A stretch of 26,750 nt of DNA from a virus (taxonomy: Duplodnaviria; Heunggongvirae; Uroviricota; Caudoviricetes): the IMG/VR virus record IMGVR_UViG_2529293065_000012; one strand, written 5' to 3'. The notes under the pieces are model-generated. The model saw only the letters and a program-made list of their open reading frames with translations. It was not told where the DNA came from and searched no databases. Positions 3,846-26,750 of the stretch are shown in pieces (the first letter of the stretch is position 1; each line of letters opens with the position of its first letter). The position numbers were made by a program, and so were the translations under genes.

Positions 3846-4141
3846 GCACCATCAATCACCAGAAGCTACGCGAACTGGCATTTGCCCTGCAACGAATGGC
3901 AACGCCTCAAAAATTACTGGTATTTCGCGCAATGCTCTCGCCGTCTGCTGTGCTGGCACTGCTGGATGAGCTGGAGCACGCCAGAACCACGGCTCCTGCC
4001 ATTCGCCTGACGCTCCATCATGAAATCGCTGATTTCTGCGCGACGTTGAAGGCGCCAGGCGAACCGGAAACACCGGAAGCAATACAGCAAGAGCTGCTGC
4101 AACGCATTGACAAGGTTTTTGATTTTTTTCTGAACCAGTAA
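3842..4141 (+). CDS. Hypothetical early protein, possibly ead/Ea22-like (99 aa)
   Basis: INHQKLRELA... and AVLALLDELEHAR resemble motifs I remember from ead/Ea22-like prophage proteins. The family call is tentative. Confidence 0.5.
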   Translation: MSTINHQKLRELAFALQRMATPQKLLVFRAMLSPSAVLALLDELEHARTTAPAIRLTLHHEIADFCATLKAPGEPETPEAIQQELLQRIDKVFDFFLNQ

Positions 4142-4162
4142 GAAACCAGAACATGCACACAC

Positions 4163-4284
4163 AAAAAAACCGCTTGCCATGCCGCAATCAGTCAGGTTAC
4201 ATTTCCGCTGCACCTCACAAAACGGGTGTCGGGTTTCGCAGCCTGCTGACTACACAAGCGCACAACCGCGCCAGCGGTTTTTTT
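4163..4284 (+). ncRNA. Rod-like structured element closed by a 12-nt terminal inverted repeat; candidate ncRNA or single-strand DNA signal
   Basis: AAAAAAACCGCT (4163-4174) is the exact reverse complement of AGCGGTTTTTTT (4273-4284). Nested helices are AGTCAG 4190-4195 / CTGACT 4246-4251, GCTGC 4207-4211 / GCAGC 4238-4242, and CACC 4211-4214 / GGTG 4225-4228. No credible ORF is present. Confidence 0.35.
4264..4284 (+). terminator. Intrinsic terminator-like hairpin plus T7 run
   Basis: AACCGC-GCCA-GCGGTT is followed by TTTTT. Its 3' arm and T-run are shared with the long-range pairing to 4163-4174, so the two folds are mutually exclusive. Confidence 0.5.
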
Positions 4285-4325
4285 GTGCGTACTGTATTGC
4301 CACGTTTTTTTCGCGTCAGAATTAT

Positions 4326-4401
4326 GGCGGGGCGTACGGGGCCGACTTCGGTCGGGCCGGGTTCTTGTGTAGCCGGTACTGCGAACCTCGTACGTCTCGC
4401 C
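4326..4401 (+). other. 76-nt branched structure closed by a 13-bp stem, containing a C(UUCG)G tetraloop hairpin
   Basis: GGCGGGGCGTACG (4326-4338) pairs with CGTACGTCTCGCC (4389-4401), giving 11 Watson-Crick and 2 G-U pairs. The inner hairpin is CCGAC-TTCG-GTCGG at 4342-4355. GCCACCCA follows the stem. Confidence 0.35.
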
Positions 4402-4463
4402 ACCCACAGTTTCGCAGCTCTGGATGGTGAGTTTTCACAACTTACTACACAAGGGGCCACACC

Positions 4464-4655
4464 ATGGCAAACCGCAAACCACACCGCGCTATCGCGGAGC
4501 GTCGTCACATCCAGACTGAAATCAACCGCAGACTTTCCCGCGCATCACGCGTCGCGCAAATCATGCACATCAATATGCTGCATGAGCGCAGCCACGCACT
4601 ATCAAACATTTATTCCGCCTCTGTTTTCAGCTATCTGGCGGATGATCTGCACTAG
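4464..4655 (+). CDS. Small basic protein with an arginine-rich N-terminus (63 aa)
   Basis: An AGGGG SD lies 7 nt before the ATG. The N-terminus is MANRKPHRAIAERRHIQTEINRRLSR. No family was recognised, and it could be non-coding. Confidence 0.45.
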   Translation: MANRKPHRAIAERRHIQTEINRRLSRASRVAQIMHINMLHERSHALSNIYSASVFSYLADDLH

Positions 4656-4766
4656 CTTCAACAGCTCATCCAGCAGCAAAACAAACTCCATTAATTCCTG
4701 TTCCGGGCCTTTCCTGCACCTTGCGGCGGGAGGCCTTCGCACATCTGTAACAAGAGGATTGCCGCA

Positions 4767-5132
4767 ATGATTCTCGCCAACGACTTTCTTGAATACCTGC
4801 TCAACACAGAACGTGATCTTGCCGCTCGCGTGCGTGATCGTTATGACATGTACCTGAAATCCCTGCCTGTACCGCAGCTCGCTGACGGAAAGATTGTTAT
4901 TGATGGTCGCTACATGATTGACAGCCACGAGGGAAATTACAGGCTTTACCGCATTGAAGGTGGCACCCCGTCCGTTATTGGCATTTACCAGCGCCCATCC
5001 TCTGCAATCGTCGATGTGATTGCCGACAGCATCCGCATCACACATCGCCATGCCGACACAGAAGACACCGTGCTGGAAATTCAGCGGCTGGCTACAGTCT
5101 GCCGCGACACCCTGAATGGCATGTCGAAGTAA
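4767..5132 (+). CDS. Hypothetical protein immediately upstream of A (121 aa)
   Basis: An AAGAGGA SD lies upstream. The ORF ends 6 nt before the A start. No family was recognised. Confidence 0.65.
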   Translation: MILANDFLEYLLNTERDLAARVRDRYDMYLKSLPVPQLADGKIVIDGRYMIDSHEGNYRLYRIEGGTPSVIGIYQRPSSAIVDVIADSIRITHRHADTEDTVLEIQRLATVCRDTLNGMSK

Positions 5133-5138
5133 ATCACT

Positions 5139-7946
5139 ATGACGGCAGAGTACATCAGGGACTGGCAACAACCGCGCCACGCAGTGGGGCGTGAAGGAAC
5201 GGGGATCCCCGCTCCTGAATCCGCGCTTTCCTCCTGGCTGGATGCCTACCGGGTAGAGAACGAGCGCTGCCAGGAAATGGCTGATGCGGCGTTCTCCGCA
5301 ACGCCGCTGGGCAACCTGATTAATAAAAGCCTGGACGCACAGGAAAAACAGGACAAAACCATCACACTGGCAGGAGACGCCAGAAAACAGGCACGCGGCG
5401 CGGTGGATGAAGCCATGGCTTCGCTGCGCCTGCTGCCGTCCTATCTGCGCGATCCGCTTATTCGCCCCCTCTCCTTCCTGCGCAAAAAACAGGAAGCCGA
5501 TCGTCAGAAAGGCAAAAAGAGCTGGCAGGCTGAACGCTACGCGCGCGGAAACCTGCGCAAAATATTCGAACGTCTGGAGCGCACCGATCACCGCTGGCTG
5601 ACACAGGGTTATCGCTCCCTTGCCGGACGCGAACGCCTGGATGATTTGCTTTACCTGCCGCAGCTCAACCAGCACCAGATACAGACGCTGGCCACCATGA
5701 CGGCGGCGATGTTCAGCAGCACCTTCGAAAAACTCTGCGATGGCTTTGGCGCGACCGATGGCGAACTGACCATGGATGTAACGCTGAAGGCGTATCAGAT
5801 GCTGGCCCGCATGGGGTTACACCTGCACGCCATGCCGCCACATTACGAAGCTCTGAACAAGAGCGATCCGGATACGGAACTGTTACCGGGCGCAATCCTT
5901 CGCCTGACCTGTGCGGAATGGTGGAAACGCAAACTGTGGCTGTTACGTTGCGAGTGGCGGGAAGAACAACTCCGCGCCGCCTGTCTGGTTTCCAGAAAAA
6001 CATCGCCCTATCTGAGCCAGGACGCGTTAAGCGAGTTTCGCGCACAGCGCGAGAAAACACGCGATTTCCTGAAAAGTTTCATGCTGGAAAACGAAGACGG
6101 GTTCACGATTGATCTCGAGACAGTGTATTACGCGGGAGTAAGTAACCCGGTTCACCGTAAGGCAGAAATGATGGCCACCATGAAGGGGCTGGAACTTCTG
6201 GCCGAAGCCCGTGGCGACAAAGCGGTGTTTCTGACCATCACCTGCCCGTCAAAATACCACGCCACAACAGAGAACGGTCATCCGAATCCCAAATGGAACG
6301 GGGCCACCATGCGCGACTCCAGCGATTACCTGGTTAACACGTTTTTTGCGGCGGTCCGCAAGAAACTGAACCGCGACGGCCTGCGCTGGTATGGCATCCG
6401 CACGGTGGAGCCTCACCATGACGGCACCGTGCACTGGCATATGATGGTCTTTGCTCATCCGGAAGAAATCGACACCATTGTGTCCCACACCCGCGATATT
6501 GCCATTCAGGAAGATCGTCACGAGCTGGGTGATGATATTACCCCACGCTTTAAGGCGGAGTACGTCGACGGCTCAAAAGGCACGCCAACCAGCTACATCG
6601 CCACCTACATCGGAAAGAACCTGGACAGCCGCGCCGTAGATGGCATCGACCCGAAAACGGGCAAGCCACGCGTTGACCACGAAACCGGAAAATCAATGGC
6701 CGAGAGCGTGGAACGCGCCATCGGCTGGGCGCGCCTTCACCGTGTCCGCCAGTTCCAGTTCTTTGGTATCCCCTCCCGTCAGGTGTGGCGTGAACTCCGC
6801 CGCCTTGCCAGCCAGATGGCACGCAACCCGGAAGGCCCGCAACGGCTGAAGGATGACGCAATGGATGCGGTACTCGCTGCCGCTGATGCCGGATGTTTTG
6901 CCACCTACATAGAGAAACAGGGCGGCGTACTTGTTCCACGCCAAGACTACCTGATTCGCACCGCCTACGACCTCGCAGATGAGCTGAACGATTACGGCGA
7001 ACAGAGCGTACAGATTTACGGGATCTGGTCGCCGCTCATCGGGGAGTCTTCCCGCGTATGCACGCATCCGGATAACTGGAAGCTGGTAAGACGCAAACCG
7101 GAAGCGGAAGACAGCTCCCACGAAAATGGTTTTGACCTTCAGGGCGGCCCTGCCGCCCCTTGGACTCGTGGCAATAACTGTCCCCGTGTACAGGAAACGG
7201 ACAACAACGGGACAGAACAGCCGGAAGAACGGCCAGCACCGTGGCCGCAGCTTCCTGACGGCGTTGACGTGAATGAATGGATGCGCTCACTGAAACGGCA
7301 CGAACGCCGGGCGCTGATGCGTTCGCTGCGTGACAAACAGGCAAAAAACAGCAGTGATGAAATGCAGAACTGGACACAGAGCCGCAAACAGCCACAGCCT
7401 TTGCCTGATAACCACGAGTTACTCGCTAAAGAATGGCGGGAGTCTGCTGAATCTCTCGGCCTGCATATCGGTGAACAGCAGATGCAGCACCTGTTACGGG
7501 GCGGCAGTCTGTACGTTGACGGCAGCATCATTGCACCGCAGGGATTTGAAATTGTACGCAAACCGGATACCCGCCCGGACAGCCGAATCACGCAGCTCTG
7601 GCAACGCCTGAGTCGTAATCACGGCGTAAGCAGCACGGAGATCCGCCATAACCCGGTCGCCAGCTATCTGGAACAACTAGAGGCATCAGACCCTGAAGCC
7701 GCCGCACGCCTGGCATCCACACTTCAGCAAGACCAGAACACCATGAAAACACCAGTTACCGTACTTTCTGACATGCTGCGCGCCATCCGCGACGCAGAGC
7801 ACGCACAGAGAATCAGTGAAACCACTGAACGCGCCCGCCGCAAAGCAGACCTGCTGCGGGGTGGCCTGAGCAGTGGAAACAAAAAACAGACAAAAACGGG
7901 ATTCACAAATCCCGTAAATGAGCAAAAAACGCGCCGCGATATATGA
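5139..7946 (+). CDS. A: Rolling-circle replication initiation endonuclease (P2 gpA family), 935 aa with a long C-terminal tail
   Basis: FLTITCPSKYH, VEPHHDGTVHWHMMVF (HUH-type metal motif) and YIATYIGKN (paired catalytic Tyr) parallel P2 A FITLTCPSKYH, VEPHHDGTPHWHMMLF and YIAKYISKN. The start codon is uncertain because the SD is weak. Confidence 0.9.
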   Translation: MTAEYIRDWQQPRHAVGREGTGIPAPESALSSWLDAYRVENERCQEMADAAFSATPLGNLINKSLDAQEKQDKTITLAGDARKQARGAVDEAMASLRLLPSYLRDPLIRPLSFLRKKQEADRQKGKKSWQAERYARGNLRKIFERLERTDHRWLTQGYRSLAGRERLDDLLYLPQLNQHQIQTLATMTAAMFSSTFEKLCDGFGATDGELTMDVTLKAYQMLARMGLHLHAMPPHYEALNKSDPDTELLPGAILRLTCAEWWKRKLWLLRCEWREEQLRAACLVSRKTSPYLSQDALSEFRAQREKTRDFLKSFMLENEDGFTIDLETVYYAGVSNPVHRKAEMMATMKGLELLAEARGDKAVFLTITCPSKYHATTENGHPNPKWNGATMRDSSDYLVNTFFAAVRKKLNRDGLRWYGIRTVEPHHDGTVHWHMMVFAHPEEIDTIVSHTRDIAIQEDRHELGDDITPRFKAEYVDGSKGTPTSYIATYIGKNLDSRAVDGIDPKTGKPRVDHETGKSMAESVERAIGWARLHRVRQFQFFGIPSRQVWRELRRLASQMARNPEGPQRLKDDAMDAVLAAADAGCFATYIEKQGGVLVPRQDYLIRTAYDLADELNDYGEQSVQIYGIWSPLIGESSRVCTHPDNWKLVRRKPEAEDSSHENGFDLQGGPAAPWTRGNNCPRVQETDNNGTEQPEERPAPWPQLPDGVDVNEWMRSLKRHERRALMRSLRDKQAKNSSDEMQNWTQSRKQPQPLPDNHELLAKEWRESAESLGLHIGEQQMQHLLRGGSLYVDGSIIAPQGFEIVRKPDTRPDSRITQLWQRLSRNHGVSSTEIRHNPVASYLEQLEASDPEAAARLASTLQQDQNTMKTPVTVLSDMLRAIRDAEHAQRISETTERARRKADLLRGGLSSGNKKQTKTGFTNPVNEQKTRRDI
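7892..7919. repeat. Copy 1 of a 28-bp direct repeat containing the 20-bp palindrome ACGGGATT-CACA-AATCCCGT
   Basis: The palindrome lies at 7896-7915, inside the last codons of A. It is repeated 73 bp downstream. Confidence 0.8.
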
Positions 7947-8022: not shown

Positions 8023-8982
8023 ATGAAAATTTGTATCGACGACGGCTCCACCAACATCAAGCTGGCATGGACTGAGAACGGCGAATGCCGCAACGCCATC
8101 AGCCCGAACAGCTTCAAGTCGGAATGGTCTGCGCCGTTCGGTGTCACGCAGCCCGCGAACTACATGCTTGATGGCGTGCGCTATGGTTTTGATCCGGTCA
8201 GCGATCGCTTTGTCCAGACGACCGACACGCAATACCAGTACAGCGATGTGAATGTCATTGCCATTCATCACGCGCTGGTCAAATCAGGCATCACGCCACA
8301 GGAAGTGGATGTGGTTGTCACCCTGCCACTGAGCGAGTATTTCGACACAAACGCACAGCCGGATATGACCAACATCAACCGCAAAAAAGCGAACGTCATG
8401 CGCCCGGTGGAGTACCAGAACGGTGAGGCATTCACTATCCGTAACGTGCGGGTTATGCCTGAATCCATTCCGGCTGGCTTTAAGGCACTGGCTAACATGA
8501 GTCCGTTTGAATCCCTGCTGATTGTGGATTTAGGCGGAACCACGCTGGATGTGGCAAAGGTTCAGGGGCAACTGGCAGGTATCAGCCAGGTGTTTTGCGA
8601 TCCACACGTAGGCGTTTCTCTGATGGCCGATGCCGTACTGTCGGTGATGGCCACTAACGGTATGCGCACCAGTCACCACATCGCCAATACCATTATCGAA
8701 CATCGCCATGATGAAGCCTGGCTGCGCCAGCACATCCACAATGACGCGCATTACGCCAGCCTGATGGCGGTTATTCGTGAAAAGGAAGAAACACTGAAAC
8801 AACGCGTGATCCGCGCGCTGGCGGTTTTTTCGGGTTACGGGCGGGTGATGGTTGTCGGTGGCGGGGCGGAGATTGTGGCACCCGCTATCCGCGAAGCCTG
8901 CGGAGTTAATGCGACTTTCATCGCGGACGGGGTGCCACAGTTTGCTCTGGTTAATGGGCTGTACGCAATGGACAAGGAGTAA
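8023..8982 (+). CDS. parM: ParM/StbA actin-like plasmid segregation ATPase (319 aa)
   Basis: Colinear by eye with R1 ParM along the whole length: IDDGSTNIKL, ISPNSFK.EW, QYSDVNV.A.HHAL, RKKAN, VMPESIPAG, DSLLI.DLGGTTLD, GISK/Q, GVSL, FSGY..VMV.GGGAE, LVNG.Y. Confidence 0.9.
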   Translation: MKICIDDGSTNIKLAWTENGECRNAISPNSFKSEWSAPFGVTQPANYMLDGVRYGFDPVSDRFVQTTDTQYQYSDVNVIAIHHALVKSGITPQEVDVVVTLPLSEYFDTNAQPDMTNINRKKANVMRPVEYQNGEAFTIRNVRVMPESIPAGFKALANMSPFESLLIVDLGGTTLDVAKVQGQLAGISQVFCDPHVGVSLMADAVLSVMATNGMRTSHHIANTIIEHRHDEAWLRQHIHNDAHYASLMAVIREKEETLKQRVIRALAVFSGYGRVMVVGGGAEIVAPAIREACGVNATFIADGVPQFALVNGLYAMDKE

Positions 8983-8986
8983 ACCA

Positions 8987-9301
8987 ATGACGACATCAAC
9001 CAGACGGATAAGTTTCTATCTGAAGCCAGACGCCGTCAAGAGTGAACAAGAGGCGTGCAATTACCTCGATAGCCTGCCAGCCTCCGAACGCAGCCGCGCG
9101 CAACGCGCGGCCTTTCTGGCCGGACTGGCACTCATAAAACGCAACCCAGCATTTGCCTACTGGATGGCCGAATGGCCAGAGGATAACCTCCCCTTCAATA
9201 CCATTAGCACCAAGGAAACATACCAAGATAATCCGCCTAGCGGAATTGAATGCAATTTTTATAAAATAAAAAAGAATATTCAGACCTTATTCCCTGAATA
9301 A
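8987..9301 (+). CDS. parR: ParR/StbB-like centromere-binding adaptor (104 aa)
   Basis: RRISFYLKPD...LDSLPASERSRAQRAAFLAGLAL parallels R1 ParR RRTIAFKLNPD...LDSIPQGERSRLNRAALTAGLAL. The start was taken at the ATG at 8987, 5 nt after the parM stop, rather than the track start at 8852, which overlaps parM. Confidence 0.75.
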   Translation: MTTSTRRISFYLKPDAVKSEQEACNYLDSLPASERSRAQRAAFLAGLALIKRNPAFAYWMAEWPEDNLPFNTISTKETYQDNPPSGIECNFYKIKKNIQTLFPE

Positions 9302-9385: not shown

Positions 9386-10228
9386 TCATGATGAAATTGC
9401 CGAAGTTTTTTTATCGTGCTGAAGTACCGCAAATGCCATCAAAACCTCAAGAGAATAGCGGCGATAATACTTAACAAAACCATAATAAAATACTCGAGAT
9501 GCAGCAAGAAAAAACAAGAAAAGAGGACCAAAAGGTAACAATCTGATATTTATATCTATTAAGTAAGATAGAGGGGCTAGACACATAATCAACCAGACTG
9601 AGGCGAGAAAAACGAATGTAATGTTTCTACAAAAACCATATAGAGCAACATAGTTTTGTATTTTCAACTGATGATTTTTCGAATGTTCATACACATAATG
9701 ATAAGCAAGACGAAAAAGATCTCCCCTCAACCCTTTGCGTCGATACAACGTAGAAACAGAAAAATTATTTATATAGCCATTTCGTATTTGCGGCCAAAAG
9801 GCCTTAATAAGTATAGGATGTAGTGTGGTTTTATGACACTCAGCTTTATCAAGAATTGATACAGGAAACAAAAAAACTCTACGAATAAAATTAAATATCT
9901 GGAATCCTGTACCACGGCGTTTTATTTTCAGGGGGTTTTTCGGGGAAAACAGATAAGTCGAAGGATATCCAAGCTTACTGTTCATGTATTTTTCAATTAA
10001 ACAGGATGATAGAATAGATATGAAGTGACCTAAAATATATGATAGAACGATCAATGTCACATACATAAACACACTTATTATTTCTTTATATTTCAAGATG
10101 TGGTTTAGAATACTCTCGACATAACCAGGGTTAATTTCAATAGAAAACAAAAAAAGGATAAACAGGAATAATCCACCTGGAATTAGATACCCCAAAAAGT
10201 CATAAAATGAAAACGGATTCTGTGTCAC
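9386..10228 (-). CDS. Unknown polytopic membrane protein, about 4 TM helices with a central soluble region of about 120 aa (280 aa)
   Basis: A GTG start at 10228 is preceded by an AGGGGGAA SD. Hydrophobic segments are FLGYLIPGGLFLFILFLFSI, IISVFMYVTLIVLSYILGHFISIL, ITFVFLASVWLIMCLAPLSYLI and LLPFGPLFLFFLAASRVFYYGF. The region is AT-rich (19/60 G+C hand-counted at 9601-9660). No family was recognised. Confidence 0.75.
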   Translation of the reverse strand: MTQNPFSFYDFLGYLIPGGLFLFILFLFSIEINPGYVESILNHILKYKEIISVFMYVTLIVLSYILGHFISILSSCLIEKYMNSKLGYPSTYLFSPKNPLKIKRRGTGFQIFNFIRRVFLFPVSILDKAECHKTTLHPILIKAFWPQIRNGYINNFSVSTLYRRKGLRGDLFRLAYHYVYEHSKNHQLKIQNYVALYGFCRNITFVFLASVWLIMCLAPLSYLIDINIRLLPFGPLFLFFLAASRVFYYGFVKYYRRYSLEVLMAFAVLQHDKKTSAISS

Positions 10229-10267: not shown

Positions 10268-10765
10268 TTATTTGTTTTTCCGTAAAGGATTAGCTTTCCA
10301 TCTTCTTACTAACCATTCGAATTCTTGATATGTAGTATCCGAATTAATGCTTTCTCTGATTGCTTTAATTAATGGCTCGGCAATATCATATGTCTCTACA
10401 ACTGTTGTGTAAGATGTTCTTTTTATCATTTTTTCATCATAAATACCTTCACGAATACTTACAGCAACTCGCTCGTAAAAATTTAAAATATATTGAAATT
10501 TTCGACGCTCGGCCATTTCCTCATCTGTTATTGTACAACCATCACAAGGAAAAACATAAGAACGAAATGATTTGCCTGAACGATGCACTTGTTTCAGGGT
10601 ATGCAATGACTCTATATATTGCATATCTTGCCGACTCTCAAAAAGAAAGTTAGCCGTTTGAGTTTTCTTTGCGGTACGCACATTGTAGATAATGGTTCCA
10701 ATGGCAACCAAAACGCCAAGCAGAACAATAGCATTGCTGATGATTTGTAGTGTTATTGGGTTCAT
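10268..10765 (-). CDS. Unknown N-terminally anchored protein, 1 TM plus a helical domain, possibly DUF4760-like (165 aa)
   Basis: The N-terminal helix is ITLQIISNAIVLLGVLVAIGTIIYNV. The core ILNFYERVAVSIREGIYDEKMIK resembles what I remember of DUF4760, but this is unverified. It is the first gene of an AT-rich two-gene operon, 39 nt upstream of the 280-aa gene. Confidence 0.75.
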   Translation of the reverse strand: MNPITLQIISNAIVLLGVLVAIGTIIYNVRTAKKTQTANFLFESRQDMQYIESLHTLKQVHRSGKSFRSYVFPCDGCTITDEEMAERRKFQYILNFYERVAVSIREGIYDEKMIKRTSYTTVVETYDIAEPLIKAIRESINSDTTYQEFEWLVRRWKANPLRKNK

Positions 10766-22833: not shown

Positions 22834-25140
22834 ATGAGTACCACAACACGAAAATTTAAAACCATTATCACTGATACTGGTGCCAAAAAATTAGCTCAGG
22901 CAGCCGCGCCAGGTGGTAATCCTGTCCGCCTGACTCACATGGCCGTGGGCGACGGTGGCGGCACGTTGCCCACACCAGACAGTAAGCAGACCCGTCTGGT
23001 GCATGAGGTGTGGCGACATACTGTTAATCGCGTCATCCTGGACGCAACACATCAGAACCGCATTATTGCGGAGCTGGTTATTCCTCCTGAAACGGGCGGA
23101 TTCTGGATCCGGGAAATTGGTGTATTTGATGAGCACGGCGATTTAATCGCGGTGGGCAATACTGCCGAAAGTTACAAACCAACCGTTGCCGAAGGGTCCG
23201 GACGTGCACAAACATTTCGCACCATTCTGACCGTATCCAGCACTGCCACCGTGGCGCTTACCGTGGATAACACCATGGTGATGGCCACAGTGGATTACGT
23301 GGATGACAAACTGAAAGAGCATGAACAGTCACGACGTCACCCGGATGCCTCGCTGACCGCAAAAGGCTTTGTTCAACTCAGTAGCGCCACTAACAGCGAT
23401 TCTGAAACGCTGGCTGCAACGCCGAAAGCGGTTAAGGCCGCGTATGACCTGGCTAACGGAAAATATACCGCTCAGGACGCCACGACGGCACGAAAAGGGA
23501 TAGTCCAGCTCAGCAGTGCAACCAACAGCACGTCTGAAACGCTGGCTGCGACACCAAAAGCGGTTAAGGCGGTAATGGATGAAACGAACAAGAAAGCGCC
23601 CTTAAATAGTCCTGCACTGACCGGAACGCCAACAACGCCAACTGCGCCAAAAGGTACTAATAATACTCAGATCGCAAGTACGGCTTATGTGATGGCCGCG
23701 ATTGCCGCCCTTGTAGACTCGTCGCCTGACGCACTGAATACGCTGAACGAGTTAGCGGCGGCGCTGGGCAACGACCCGAATTTTGCGACCACCATGACTA
23801 ACGCGCTTGCGGGTAAGCAACCGAAAGATGCCACCCTGACGGCGCTGGCCGGGCTTGCTACTGCGGCAGACAGGTTTCCGTATTTTACGGGGAATGATGT
23901 CGCCAGCCTGGCAACCCTGACAAAAGTCGGGCGGGATATTCTTGCGAAATCGACCGTTGCTGCCGTTATCGAATACCTCGGTTTGCAGGAAACGGTAAAT
24001 AAGGCTTCTGGCGCATTACAGAAAAACCAGAACGGCGCAGATATTCCCGATAAAAAACTATTCCTGCGTAATATCGGCACAACAAATTCAACAACCATGT
24101 CTTTTAGTGGTGGTGCTGGATGGTTCAAACTGGCAACTGTAACAATGCCACAAGCCAGTTCCGTGGTTTACATAAGCCTGATTGGTGGCGCAGGGTATAA
24201 CGTTGGCTCCTCGCATCAAGCAGGCATCTCTGAGCTGGTTCTGCGTGCCGGAAATGGGAATCCAAAAGGTATTACTGGTGCATTATGGCGACGGACCTCG
24301 GTTGGATTTACTCATTTTGCATGGGTGAATACATCCGGTGATACCTATGACATTTATGTAGAAATAGGTAATTACGCCACAGGTGTTAATATTCAGTGGG
24401 ATTATACCAGTAACGCCAGCGTAACGATTCATACATCACCAACTTATACAGCGAATAAACCAACAGGCCTGACAGATGGAACTGTATATGTAATTTACAG
24501 TTCGCACATTAAACCGACTGCTGCTGAGGTTGGGGCGTTGTCATTATCTGGCGGTCAATTGAATGGTGCACTGGGCATCGGAACATCCAGTGTTCTTGGC
24601 GGTAACTCGATTGTTTTGGGGGATAATGATACTGGTTTCAAACAGAACGGCGATGGCCTTCTTGATGTTTATGCTAATAGTCAGCATGTATTCCGTTTCC
24701 AGAATGGCGTGGCTATTGCTTTAAAAAACATTCAGGCCGGAGATGGTAAAAAACTCTCGCTATCAAGCTCCAACAACTCCACAAAGAATGCAAGGTTTAA
24801 TTTATGGGGTAATTCATCCCGCCCCGTAGTTGCAGAACTTGGTGATGATTCAGGTTGGCATTTTTATAGTCAAAGAAATACAGATAATTCAGTATTGTTC
24901 TCCGTTAACGGTCAGATAAACCCCAACAACTGGAGTAACTTTGATTCTCGTTATGTGAGAGATGTCCGACTTGGTACACGTGTTGTTCAGACTATGCAAA
25001 AAGGCGTGATGTATGAGAAATCAGGTCATGCAATTACGGGGCTTGGCATTATTGGCGCTGTTGATGGCGATGATCCGGCTGTATTCAGACCAATACAAAA
25101 ATACATCAATGGCACATGGTATAACGTCGCACAGGTATAA
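22834..25140 (+). CDS. H: Tail fibre protein (P2 gpH / Mu S-like, 768 aa); the N-terminal part is constant and the C-terminal part lies inside the invertible segment
   Basis: The N-terminus FKTIITDTGAKKLAQA...THMAVGDGGG is typical of P2 H. It carries tail-fibre repeat motifs and EYLGL at the recombination site. The C-terminus ..QKYINGTWYNV is shared with the inverted alternative ORF. Confidence 0.9.
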   Translation: MSTTTRKFKTIITDTGAKKLAQAAAPGGNPVRLTHMAVGDGGGTLPTPDSKQTRLVHEVWRHTVNRVILDATHQNRIIAELVIPPETGGFWIREIGVFDEHGDLIAVGNTAESYKPTVAEGSGRAQTFRTILTVSSTATVALTVDNTMVMATVDYVDDKLKEHEQSRRHPDASLTAKGFVQLSSATNSDSETLAATPKAVKAAYDLANGKYTAQDATTARKGIVQLSSATNSTSETLAATPKAVKAVMDETNKKAPLNSPALTGTPTTPTAPKGTNNTQIASTAYVMAAIAALVDSSPDALNTLNELAAALGNDPNFATTMTNALAGKQPKDATLTALAGLATAADRFPYFTGNDVASLATLTKVGRDILAKSTVAAVIEYLGLQETVNKASGALQKNQNGADIPDKKLFLRNIGTTNSTTMSFSGGAGWFKLATVTMPQASSVVYISLIGGAGYNVGSSHQAGISELVLRAGNGNPKGITGALWRRTSVGFTHFAWVNTSGDTYDIYVEIGNYATGVNIQWDYTSNASVTIHTSPTYTANKPTGLTDGTVYVIYSSHIKPTAAEVGALSLSGGQLNGALGIGTSSVLGGNSIVLGDNDTGFKQNGDGLLDVYANSQHVFRFQNGVAIALKNIQAGDGKKLSLSSSNNSTKNARFNLWGNSSRPVVAELGDDSGWHFYSQRNTDNSVLFSVNGQINPNNWSNFDSRYVRDVRLGTRVVQTMQKGVMYEKSGHAITGLGIIGAVDGDDPAVFRPIQKYINGTWYNVAQV
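23365..23448 (+). repeat. Intragenic tail-fibre repeat, copy 1 (GFVQLSSATNSDSETLAATPKAVKAAYD)
   Basis: An 84-nt unit repeated at 23497-23580, encoding the phage tail-fibre repeat motif. Confidence 0.8.
23497..23580 (+). repeat. Intragenic tail-fibre repeat, copy 2 (GIVQLSSATNSTSETLAATPKAVKAVMD)
   Basis: It lies 132 nt after copy 1, with a near-identical central ETLAATPKAVKA coding block. Confidence 0.8.
23966..23991. promoter_or_regulatory. Left crossover site for a Gin/Cin/Hin-family DNA invertase (gix/cix-like 26-mer) inside H
   Basis: TTATCGAATACCTCGGTTTGCAGGAA matches the remembered Mu gix sequence TTATCCAAAACCTCGGTTTACAGGAA at 22 of 26 positions, by eye. Confidence 0.7.
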
Positions 25141-25143
25141 TTT

Positions 25144-25671
25144 ATGCAGCATTTAAAAAATATTACTGCAGGTAATCCCAAAACTATCGAACAGTATCAA
25201 CTTACAAAAGAATTTGATGTTATCTGGTTATGGTCCGAAGACGGAAAAAACTGGTATGAGGAAGTGAAAAACTTTCAGCCAGACACAATAAAGATTGTTT
25301 ACGATGCAAATAATATTATTGTCGCCATCACCAAAGATGCCTCCACGCTTAACCCTGAAGGTTATAGCGTCGTTGAGGTTCCAGATATTACAGCCAACCG
25401 CCGCGCTGATGATTCCGGTAAGTGGATGTTTAGGGACGGAGCTGTGGTTAAACGGATTTATACGGCAGACGAGCAACAACAACAGGCCGAATCACAAAAG
25501 GCCGCGTTGCTTTCTGAAGCTGAAAGCGTTATTCAGCCACTGGAACGCGCTGTCAGGCTGAATATGGCGACGGATGAGGAGCGTACACGACTGGAGTCAT
25601 GGGAACGCTACAGCGTTCTGGTCAACCGTGTGGATACAGCAAAGCCCGAATGGCCACAAAAGCCTGAATAA
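25144..25671 (+). CDS. G: Tail fibre assembly chaperone (P2 gpG / Mu U-like, 175 aa)
   Basis: It follows H by 3 nt. The N-terminus is near-identical to the inverted paralogue at 25700-26233. Confidence 0.85.
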
Positions 25672-25676
25672 AAATT

Positions 25677-25696
25677 AAGGCCCGCTATCGGGCCTT
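25677..25696. terminator. Hairpin between the two convergent tail-fibre assembly genes
   Basis: The sequence is AAGGCCCG-CTAT-CGGGCCTT, an 8-bp stem. It is flanked by an A-rich 5' side. Confidence 0.55.
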
Positions 25697-25699
25697 GTC

Positions 25700-26233
25700 T
25701 CATTCAGGTTGTTCGGGAAATATTACTGGCAGGCTGGAGGTGTCTGTAGATTCGACTTTCTGCGCATAGAGCATCCACTCGGTTAATTTTTGTTTATTCT
25801 CGTCGGAAATGATGCCCAGCCGTAGCTGTGAGTCCCATAGCTGTGTTTTATCCCTGACGAGCTGTAGCAGGCTTTGCTTTTCATTTTCCGCTTGTTGCCT
25901 CTGCTCTTCCTCGGTATAAGTTCGCTTTATCACTACGCCATCTTTGAACATCCAGTTGCCGGAAATATCAGCGCGTCGGTTTGCCGTAATATTGGGTAAC
26001 TCAACCACACTCATTCCCTCTGGATTAATCAGGGATACATCTTTCTCAATACAGCAAATAACACCCTCCTGGTTATATGCCACTTTTAACGTGTCAGGCT
26101 GGAAATTTTTCTGTTCCTCATACCAGTTCTTACCTTCTTCCGACCATAACCAGACAACATCAAATTCTTTTGTAAGTTGATACTGTTCGATAGTTTTGGG
26201 ATTTCCTGCTTTAATATTTTTTAAATGCTGCAT
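25700..26233 (-). CDS. Alternative tail fibre assembly chaperone in inverted orientation (U'-like, 177 aa)
   Basis: [40 protein letters not shown] compares with [40 protein letters not shown] in the plus-strand copy. The start was taken at the ATG at 26233, with the same TAATATGCAGCAT junction as in H-G. Confidence 0.85.
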   Translation of the reverse strand: MQHLKNIKAGNPKTIEQYQLTKEFDVVWLWSEEGKNWYEEQKNFQPDTLKVAYNQEGVICCIEKDVSLINPEGMSVVELPNITANRRADISGNWMFKDGVVIKRTYTEEEQRQQAENEKQSLLQLVRDKTQLWDSQLRLGIISDENKQKLTEWMLYAQKVESTDTSSLPVIFPEQPE

Positions 26234-26234
26234 A

Positions 26235-26750
26235 TTAAGCACGTCCTACATTGTACCAATGACCATTAATATATTTCTGAACAGGAGCGTAGACAGGCCA
26301 TTCTCTCGAATCATCAAAGTTGCCACCTGTCAGAACGTATCCGGCTGGAACCGTTCCGCCATCACCACCCCAGACAATCCCACTCTGGTTAGCACCCATG
26401 CGAACGTCACGAACATAGCGTGAGTCAAAATTACCATAATTGCCGGGAATAATTTGCGAGCCGCAAAGCCAATTCCCGTTATTATCCATGTACGCCTGAC
26501 CATCGGTGCCATTGTCTGTCCTTGAGTTATTAATCATGTAGATGCCAAATTCCCTATTCCCCAGTCCACCAATCATAAATTTGCGGTCAGCATGGTCCTG
26601 ACGTAGCAATGCCTGGGCGCTATCAGTTTTAACTATATTTCTCCCAAAGATAGCGTTGTTATCGCGCATCTGAATCCACATACCATTACTGCTGTTAATA
26701 GCAAAACGGTTTGCAAATATATCCCCTGTAACATCAAGACCATGCCCCAT
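26235..26750 (-). CDS. Alternative tail-fibre C-terminal (variable) segment, inverted orientation; 5' end beyond the window
   Basis: It ends ...NFDSRYVRDVRMG...VQKYINGHWYNVGRA, paralleling the H C-terminus NFDSRYVRDVRLG...IQKYINGTWYNVAQV. The ORF is open to the window edge. Confidence 0.8.
   Translation of the reverse strand: MGHGLDVTGDIFANRFAINSSNGMWIQMRDNNAIFGRNIVKTDSAQALLRQDHADRKFMIGGLGNREFGIYMINNSRTDNGTDGQAYMDNNGNWLCGSQIIPGNYGNFDSRYVRDVRMGANQSGIVWGGDGGTVPAGYVLTGGNFDDSREWPVYAPVQKYINGHWYNVGRA

Follow-up and report, generated by a model that had tools for sequence, protein, structure and literature searches.

We analyzed the tail-fibre region of a 26,750-nt stretch of DNA (hereafter the window; IMG/VR record IMGVR_UViG_2529293065_000012), which comprises a P2-like prophage on contig 34 (APYZ01000034.1) of Escherichia coli P0302308.10. 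With a rough probability of 0.78, we read the end of the window as the invertible tail-fibre cassette of an N15-like plasmid prophage, joined to the fibre gene H of the P2-like prophage by a likely assembly error and operating as a DNA-inversion switch of the Gin/Cin/Pin type. From about position 23547 onwards, the window most likely represents the side-tail-fibre (Stf/Tfa) module of this co-resident plasmid prophage. The P2-like prophage has a distinct invertible segment and its own Gin-like invertase on the next contig. Judging from the assembled sequences, the switch is genuine, active and of a long-known kind, one more instance beside a second one in the same strain's P2-like prophage. Tail-fibre-tip switches driven by Gin, Cin and Pin have stood in textbooks ever since the work on Mu and P1. 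A preliminary description of the window had recognized a Gin/Cin-type invertible segment and read it as continuous with gene H; the type holds, but from about 23547 the segment belongs to the plasmid prophage.

Identical copies of the cassette in an N15-like plasmid prophage

In the window, the constant part of the fibre gene leads through a 26-bp crossover site into a variable C-terminus (Hv) and its tail-fibre assembly chaperone gene (G). A second chaperone gene (G') and an alternative fibre C-terminus (Hv') follow on the minus strand (Table 1), as the preliminary description had stated. An exact-protein look-up of the two chaperones retrieved contig L017, from another strain, and contig L018 (APZB01000145), from sample P0302308.12. 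From 23975 to the end of contig 34, the window sequence is 100.000% identical to both over 2836 nt. In L017 and L018, the segment is followed by a partner site, a 184-aa protein with Resolvase and HTH_7 domains, SopB and SopA, and the Hv sequence of the window lies silent, adjoining the invertase. The partner site, TTCTCAAAAACC-TC-GGTTT(A/G)CAGGAA, is on the opposite strand with 3249 bp between the cores (L017 118-143 and 3368-3393), approximately at window-equivalent positions 27216-27241. The start codon of the invertase gene lies 64 nt past this site, and the gene is directed away from the segment (L017 3458-4012, L018 3846-4400). Its product (PF00239 and PF02796, N-terminal motif GYARVST) is 56% identical to Gin and Cin and falls in a cluster that database sources name 'Pin-like' or 'e14 prophage' recombinase. 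A partner site and an invertase had been predicted just past 26750. They are present in L017 and L018 beyond ~0.4 kb that contig 34 lacks; that contig stops 60 nt after the window. The enzyme is the plasmid's and not the Gin-like one of the P2-like prophage.

The flank in L017 and L018 matches the 45.9-kb plasmid pZ1323HEC0355-3 at 97.8% identity. This plasmid encodes a protelomerase along with lambda-type J, Lom and Stf genes and is therefore an N15-like linear plasmid prophage. The identical 184-aa invertase recurs in many contigs with the order J-Lom-Stf-TAP-TAP'-invertase-SopBA-TelK (TelK domains in L046, L048, and L055). L018 is collinear with contig L054 (99.1% identity over 6.5 kb), and its constant part has 0 mismatches to the N15-like contig L048. 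A full-text literature search yielded no paper on an invertase switch in N15-like plasmid prophages, though the arrangement recurs in many database records. No record among the complete E. coli genomes and the phage collection held this pair of fibre ends at >92% identity, so a flipped copy of the exact segment could not be sought there. In two other E. coli assemblies (L008 and L009), a segment 98.6% identical forms a stand-alone contig of ~3.2 kb that ends at the crossover sites. Many further fibre-end matches, from a protein search with the Hv' fragment, likewise lie on ~3-kb contigs.

Crossover site and inversion

The crossover site reads TTATCGAATACC-TC-GGTTTGCAGGAA and encodes I-E-Y-L-G-L-Q-E, in agreement with the preliminary placement of a gix/cix-like site at the EYLGL junction of H. 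It is single in the window (0.00 matches expected in shuffles), and no other 26-mer there comes within 7 mismatches of any of four reference sites. From the D108 site adjoining gin (TTATCTAAAACCTCGGTTTACAGGAA) it differs at 3 of 26 positions, the central TC being found in both D108 sites too, and from the annotated cixR of P1, with its TT core, at 6 of 26. We found no third crossover site, as a multiple-inversion system of the shufflon type would have: at a limit of 6 mismatches, L017 and L018 contain their two flanking sites and no others. The 26-bp site alone is not diagnostic of a switch, for an orphan gix-like site is also present in gene H of P2 (TTATCGAATATCTCGGTTTACAGGAA; L012 2667-2692), with 2 mismatches to the window site. 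Around this orphan, P2 has no partner site, inverted paralogues or invertase, and the gene order is H, G, terminator, fun(Z), FI. The earlier statement that the Mu G / P1 C architecture is absent from P2 is thus right for the architecture but overlooks the site in P2. The orphan resembles a leftover of cassette exchange or a docking site for it; a literature search on it brought nothing useful.

Four half-sites can be told apart in the plasmid module: the outer constant (TTATCGAATACC), outer invertase (TTCTCAAAAACC), inner Hv (GGTTTGCAGGAA), and inner Hv' (GGTTTACAGGAA) halves. The joint of the constant region with Hv is in the window and that with Hv' in L018 and L027 (P0302308.4), whereas the invertase side is joined to Hv in L017 and L018 and to Hv' in L017. 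Since all four joints are seen, in assemblies rather than reads, we conclude that the switch inverts. The differences between outer and inner half-sites recombine in all four combinations, which confines the exchange to the stretch between positions 9 and 20 of the site (TC at 13-14); the G/A difference in the inner half at 23985 moves with the segment end across the four joints. Staggered cleavage at the central TC is established for Gin and Hin, and exchange within positions 9-20 is consistent with it. The identical segment occurs in opposite orientations among sibling isolates (window versus L018 and L027). L017 holds both invertase-side joints in a single assembly, and contig L040 of P0302308.10 does likewise for the segment of the P2-like prophage. 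Both fusions are in frame, giving 768 aa in the window and a 503-aa partial product in L018; in L027, too, Hv' continues the reading frame of the constant region.

In our reading, window positions 23966-26750 contain the larger part of an invertible host-range cassette of 3.25 kb. Its two 26-bp sites, inverted relative to each other, lie in the fibre gene at the constant/variable junction and ~64 nt upstream of the gene for the invertase, a serine enzyme of the Gin/Cin/Pin group that would exchange strands at their central TC. With every inversion, one of the two C-termini and its own chaperone would come to follow the constant part and its promoter in frame, and transcription would end at a shared hairpin. 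Transcription would be expected to run from an upstream late promoter to the hairpin at 25677-25696, which is likely the shared terminator of both chaperone genes; terminators are annotated at the corresponding place in D108. We infer that both fibre ends are expressed in turn and confer different host ranges, and that the switch may depend on Fis and an enhancer.

The segment of the P2-like prophage

A gpI look-up identified the corresponding prophage in two sibling isolates of P0302308, on contigs L028 (APZE01000037.1, isolate.2) and L035 (isolate.12, the same sample as L018). Both run unbroken through gpI, H (721 aa), chaperones of 175 and 177 aa, a 247-aa fibre fragment, a 195-aa invertase and gpU, followed by T, E, tube and sheath genes. 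P0302308.10, too, has the 247-aa fragment among its annotated proteins, and there it opens contig 35 (APYZ01000035.1; L040). This segment has a different Hv from the window cassette and is at best 86-90% identical to it where the two can be aligned. Its 195-aa invertase, outside the window on contig 35, is intact and 85.6% identical to Gin. Over the region corresponding to the annotated enhancer of P1 (gene nt 19-90), the invertase gene is identical to D108 gin at 72 of 72 positions.

In L040, positions 1-1074 are the reverse complement of 4096-5169 at 99.3% identity, so that the prophage's segment has the invertase flank at both ends (L040 1-5169). This double flank is an assembly signature of both orientations in the sequenced culture. 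Downstream of the segment, L040 continues with the intact invertase and tail genes, and no joint to a constant region is present.

Allele phasing of the fibre gene

Up to 23530, the window shows 3 mismatches to the sibling prophage (L035) in 11,230 positions. In a three-way comparison with L035 and L018, the window is P2-type at 7/7 sites in 23481-23530 that distinguish the sibling P2 constant region (Hc) from the constant end of the plasmid side tail fibre (stf) gene, and plasmid-type at 30/30 such sites in 23547-23964. Between 23531 and the crossover site it differs from L018 nowhere, and the plasmid alleles were confirmed in the independent N15-like contigs L048 and L054. The 768-aa 'H' is therefore a hybrid of P2 and plasmid sequence. 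No other contig encodes this hybrid protein in a collection of ~15 billion proteins. P2 H and plasmid stf have ~0.6 kb in common at ~93-96% identity, with exact runs of up to 146 nt (23755-23900), and contig 34 ends 110 nt into a 131-nt exact repeat common to the plasmid Hv' and the Hv of the P2-like prophage.

From this allele pattern, the join at 23530-23547 is most likely an assembly chimera. A fork created by the P2-like prophage's own inverting segment would probably have encouraged the misjoin. Short-read assemblies tangle the two related cassettes of one strain, so the 768-aa product annotated as 'tail fibre protein' probably does not exist.

The constant region also contains a direct repeat of 96 nt (23343-23438 and 23475-23570, 76% identical) that encodes two Phage_fiber_2 repeats. 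Homology to N15-like stf genes begins within this repeat, at about 23361, and the hybrid junction falls in its second copy.

Alternative explanations

It is very unlikely that the segment is the Mu-G-like module of the P2-like prophage itself, continuous with H and with its partner site and invertase next on the chromosome. The close P2-like relatives P88, IHE3034, SCU-111, C311 and RM14723 have exactly that layout, and SCU-111 and FDN-11 carry the identical 26-mer; yet the alleles are the plasmid's at 30/30 sites from 23547, two siblings and contig 35 carry another segment (86-90% identical where alignable), and the identical segment is elsewhere flanked by invertase-sopB-sopA. Even less probable is a fossil, in which the inverted paralogues would be relics that no longer invert. 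Modules have decayed in relatives (FDN-11, strain 504239, and Z0117EC0098) and P2 has kept its orphan site, but the identical segment lies in opposite orientations in sibling isolates, L017 combines both invertase-side joints, and the invertases of 184 aa and 195 aa are intact. The preliminary description had named a fossil as its alternative, and the two orientations seen across assemblies speak against it.

A true hybrid carries more weight, although we consider it unlikely. In this case P2 H and the plasmid stf gene would have undergone homologous recombination in P0302308.10, through a cointegrate of a circular form of the plasmid or by gene conversion. The shared ~0.6 kb would provide the homology, the alleles switch within a short stretch of identity as recombination junctions can, patchy plasmid-type alleles in isolate.2 could reflect gene conversion, and tail-fibre genes are notoriously mosaic. 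Against this, the P2-like prophage's own segment is still in the same assembly and lacks any joint to a constant region, and the contig ends in a repeat common to both modules, as expected of tangled repeats. A single crossover with a linear plasmid, as N15-type plasmids are established to be, would break the chromosome, and no other genome has the hybrid among the ~15 billion proteins. The more specific proposal that a P2-like myovirus prophage captured the complete invertible cassette of an N15-like siphovirus plasmid prophage, through recombination within the constant-region end common to both and in one isolate of a clonal series, is if anything less likely. Several observations also weigh against a plasmid cassette attached by misassembly. 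The switch of alleles falls in only 16 nt of three-way identity and not in the longer exact repeats (146 nt, 23755-23900), which is less typical of a k-mer misjoin and fits consensus mixing by an overlap assembler, or real recombination. The sibling prophage of isolate.2 (L028) has an 11-site plasmid-type patch within its P2-type Hc (window-equivalent 23610-23670), due either to consensus mixing of collapsed repeats or to gene conversion between the two prophages. The N15-like assignment is based on close relatives and not on a protelomerase seen in this strain; a contig of P0302308.10 with the plasmid invertase was not found, the sample not being among the matches listed in the invertase look-up. 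The plasmid invertase gene is identical to gin at 46/72 positions of the enhancer-equivalent region. An assembly chimera and a real recombinant in isolate.10 can be separated by reads only.

Relation to known inversion systems

The window cassette resembles the G segment of Mu and D108 in having its site in the fibre gene at the constant/variable junction, the arrangement Sv-U / U'-Sv', in which terminators separate the convergent chaperone genes, and the invertase just outside the far site. It differs in host, a transposable myovirus there versus an N15-like plasmid prophage and a P2-like prophage here, in the divergence of the plasmid invertase from Gin, and in its variable ends, which are different mosaics. 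With the C segment of P1 it shares the architecture and the chaperone family (U and U' have 85-87% DNA identity to the window pair), and P1 has its enhancer inside the invertase gene. Unlike the window cassette, the C segment has a TT core in cix, another inner half (TTATCCAATACCTTGGTTTAAGAGAA) and a length of 4.2 kb, and cin is directed towards the segment. The likeness to the P segment and Pin of e14 (side tail fibre (stf), alternative C-termini, lambdoid tail context) comes from source names only. The Min system of p15B and the three-site P2-like locus of enteropathogenic E. coli (EPEC) have at least 3 sites, whereas the window cassette shows two.

Among P2-like prophages, P88 and those of IHE3034, UTI89 and EPEC E2348/69 have the order H-G-G'-Hv'-site-invertase-gpU and the same 26-mer or one that differs by 1 nt. 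The P2-like prophage of P0302308.10 has such a module on contig 35. The window cassette is not that module, having a different Hv and 86-90% identity to it at best where alignable. In six P2-like relatives (P88, IHE3034, SCU-111, C311, RM14723, and FDN-11), H-G-G'-Hv' is followed by an inverted site, a Gin-like recombinase and gpU; the 26-mer is identical to that of the window in SCU-111 and FDN-11. The recombinase is intact (195-199 aa) in all of these but FDN-11, and the four compared (without C311) are ~85% identical to Gin. Both orientations occur among near-identical P2-like prophages. Computational inversion of the IHE3034 segment, with the core dinucleotides as breakpoints, gave a fibre gene of 661 aa that is in frame, and the flipped arrangement is collinear in 104 complete E. 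coli genomes as a single aligned piece of up to 99.6% identity. EPEC cultures have provided experimental measurements of inversion in P2-like prophages (PMC4272514), so this kind of system was already known.

Degraded modules were also encountered. The P2-like prophage of FDN-11 has a truncated invertase (L005 18706-19122), a lambdoid prophage of strain 504239 retains 64 aa of the enzyme (L002 9462-9656), and in a Mu-like prophage of Z0117EC0098 the gene is frameshifted (L003 5356-5950). One P2-like prophage (L031 10534-13954) has H-TAP-gpU without a second cassette or invertase.

Layout of the fibre region and other window genes

The coordinates of the fibre region are given in Table 1. About 460 nt at the 5' end of Hv' fall outside the window (60 nt on the contig and ~400 nt missing), and its full-length version (318-325 aa) is found in L017, L018, L008, and P0001/P0002. 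Shared N- and C-terminal blocks had been noted between the expressed and inverted copies. For the chaperones, 58% identical overall, this holds at the 5' ends, where the opening 150 nt of the two genes are inverted repeats of each other at 90% identity (25143-25292 / 26085-26234); the fibre ends have only their last ~90 aa in common, at 39% identity. An IS element at the contig end was considered and rejected, as the final bases are collinear with L008, L017, and L018.

Table 1. Features of the tail-fibre region (window coordinates)
Feature	Position	Strand	Basis or remark
Fibre open reading frame (ORF)	22834-25140	+	768 aa; Phage_tail_fib N-terminal domain and Phage_fiber_2 repeats (Pfam)
Genuine 5' part of H of the P2-like prophage	22834-23530	+	Phage_tail_fib N-terminal domain, first fibre repeat; allele match to sibling prophage
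Allele-switch interval from P2-like prophage to plasmid (hybrid or chimera junction)	23531-23546		Three-way comparison of window, L035 and L018
Constant-region end, probable side tail fibre (stf) gene of N15-like plasmid prophage	23547-23965	+	In-frame fusion to 5' part of P2 H
gix-type 26-bp crossover site, 12-2-12, central TC	23966-23991	+	Outer half is constant region, inner half is segment
Variable fibre C-terminus in expressed position (Hv)	23992-25140	+	ORF; 100% identical to L017 and L018
Caudo_TAP tail-fibre assembly chaperone, cognate to Hv	25144-25671	+	175 aa; E = 2.8e-37; phrog_136
GC-rich hairpin between convergent chaperones	25677-25696		Terminator-like match on minus strand
Inverted second Caudo_TAP chaperone, cognate to Hv'	25700-26233	-	177 aa; E = 8.5e-36
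Silent alternative fibre C-terminus (Hv'), 3' two-thirds	26235-26750	-	Frame open to contig end, window-equivalent 26810

In a 1153-nt contig of P0302308.4 (L026, APZG01000062.1), Hv is followed by a G'-type chaperone in place of G. This pairing is either an assembly path or a recombinant formed through the 150-nt, 90% identical inverted repeat of the chaperone genes; if it is genuine, inversion by homology could bring a fibre end together with the chaperone that is not its cognate.

The remainder of the window has the gene order of a P2-like prophage, opening with integrase, repressor, cox, gpA, ParM, and a StbB-like protein, and continuing with two cargo genes, portal Q, terminase P, capsid, lysis, baseplate V, W, J, I, and the fibre region. 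The 935-aa gpA (5139-7946) has its Phage_GPA domain at residues 179-498 only, followed by a long C-terminal extension with no assigned domain. Beside this replication gene lie ParM (StbA_N and ParM_N) and a Plasmid_stab_B protein (8023-9301), a pair that recurs in the IHE3034 and FDN-11 relatives. The cargo genes, both on the minus strand, encode a 280-aa protein (9386-10228; phrog_12528) with no Pfam family and only a weak Csx27 match (4e-5) in a PADLOC scan, and a DUF4760 protein (10268-10765; phrog_2284). Located between the replication and partition genes and portal Q, they may form an accessory or defence island; P2 carries tin and old at this place.

Implications

If the capture of the plasmid cassette by the P2-like prophage were true, an exchange of cassettes between unrelated prophages would have been caught in the act. 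Under our preferred reading, a plasmid cassette joined to H by misassembly, the biology is an ordinary case of a known type of switch, measured earlier in P2-like prophages. One strain harbors two related inverting cassettes, one in its P2-like prophage and one in an N15-like plasmid prophage. In draft genomes, active inversion can be recognized by contig ends, by stand-alone contigs of ~3 kb and by contigs with an invertase flank on both sides.

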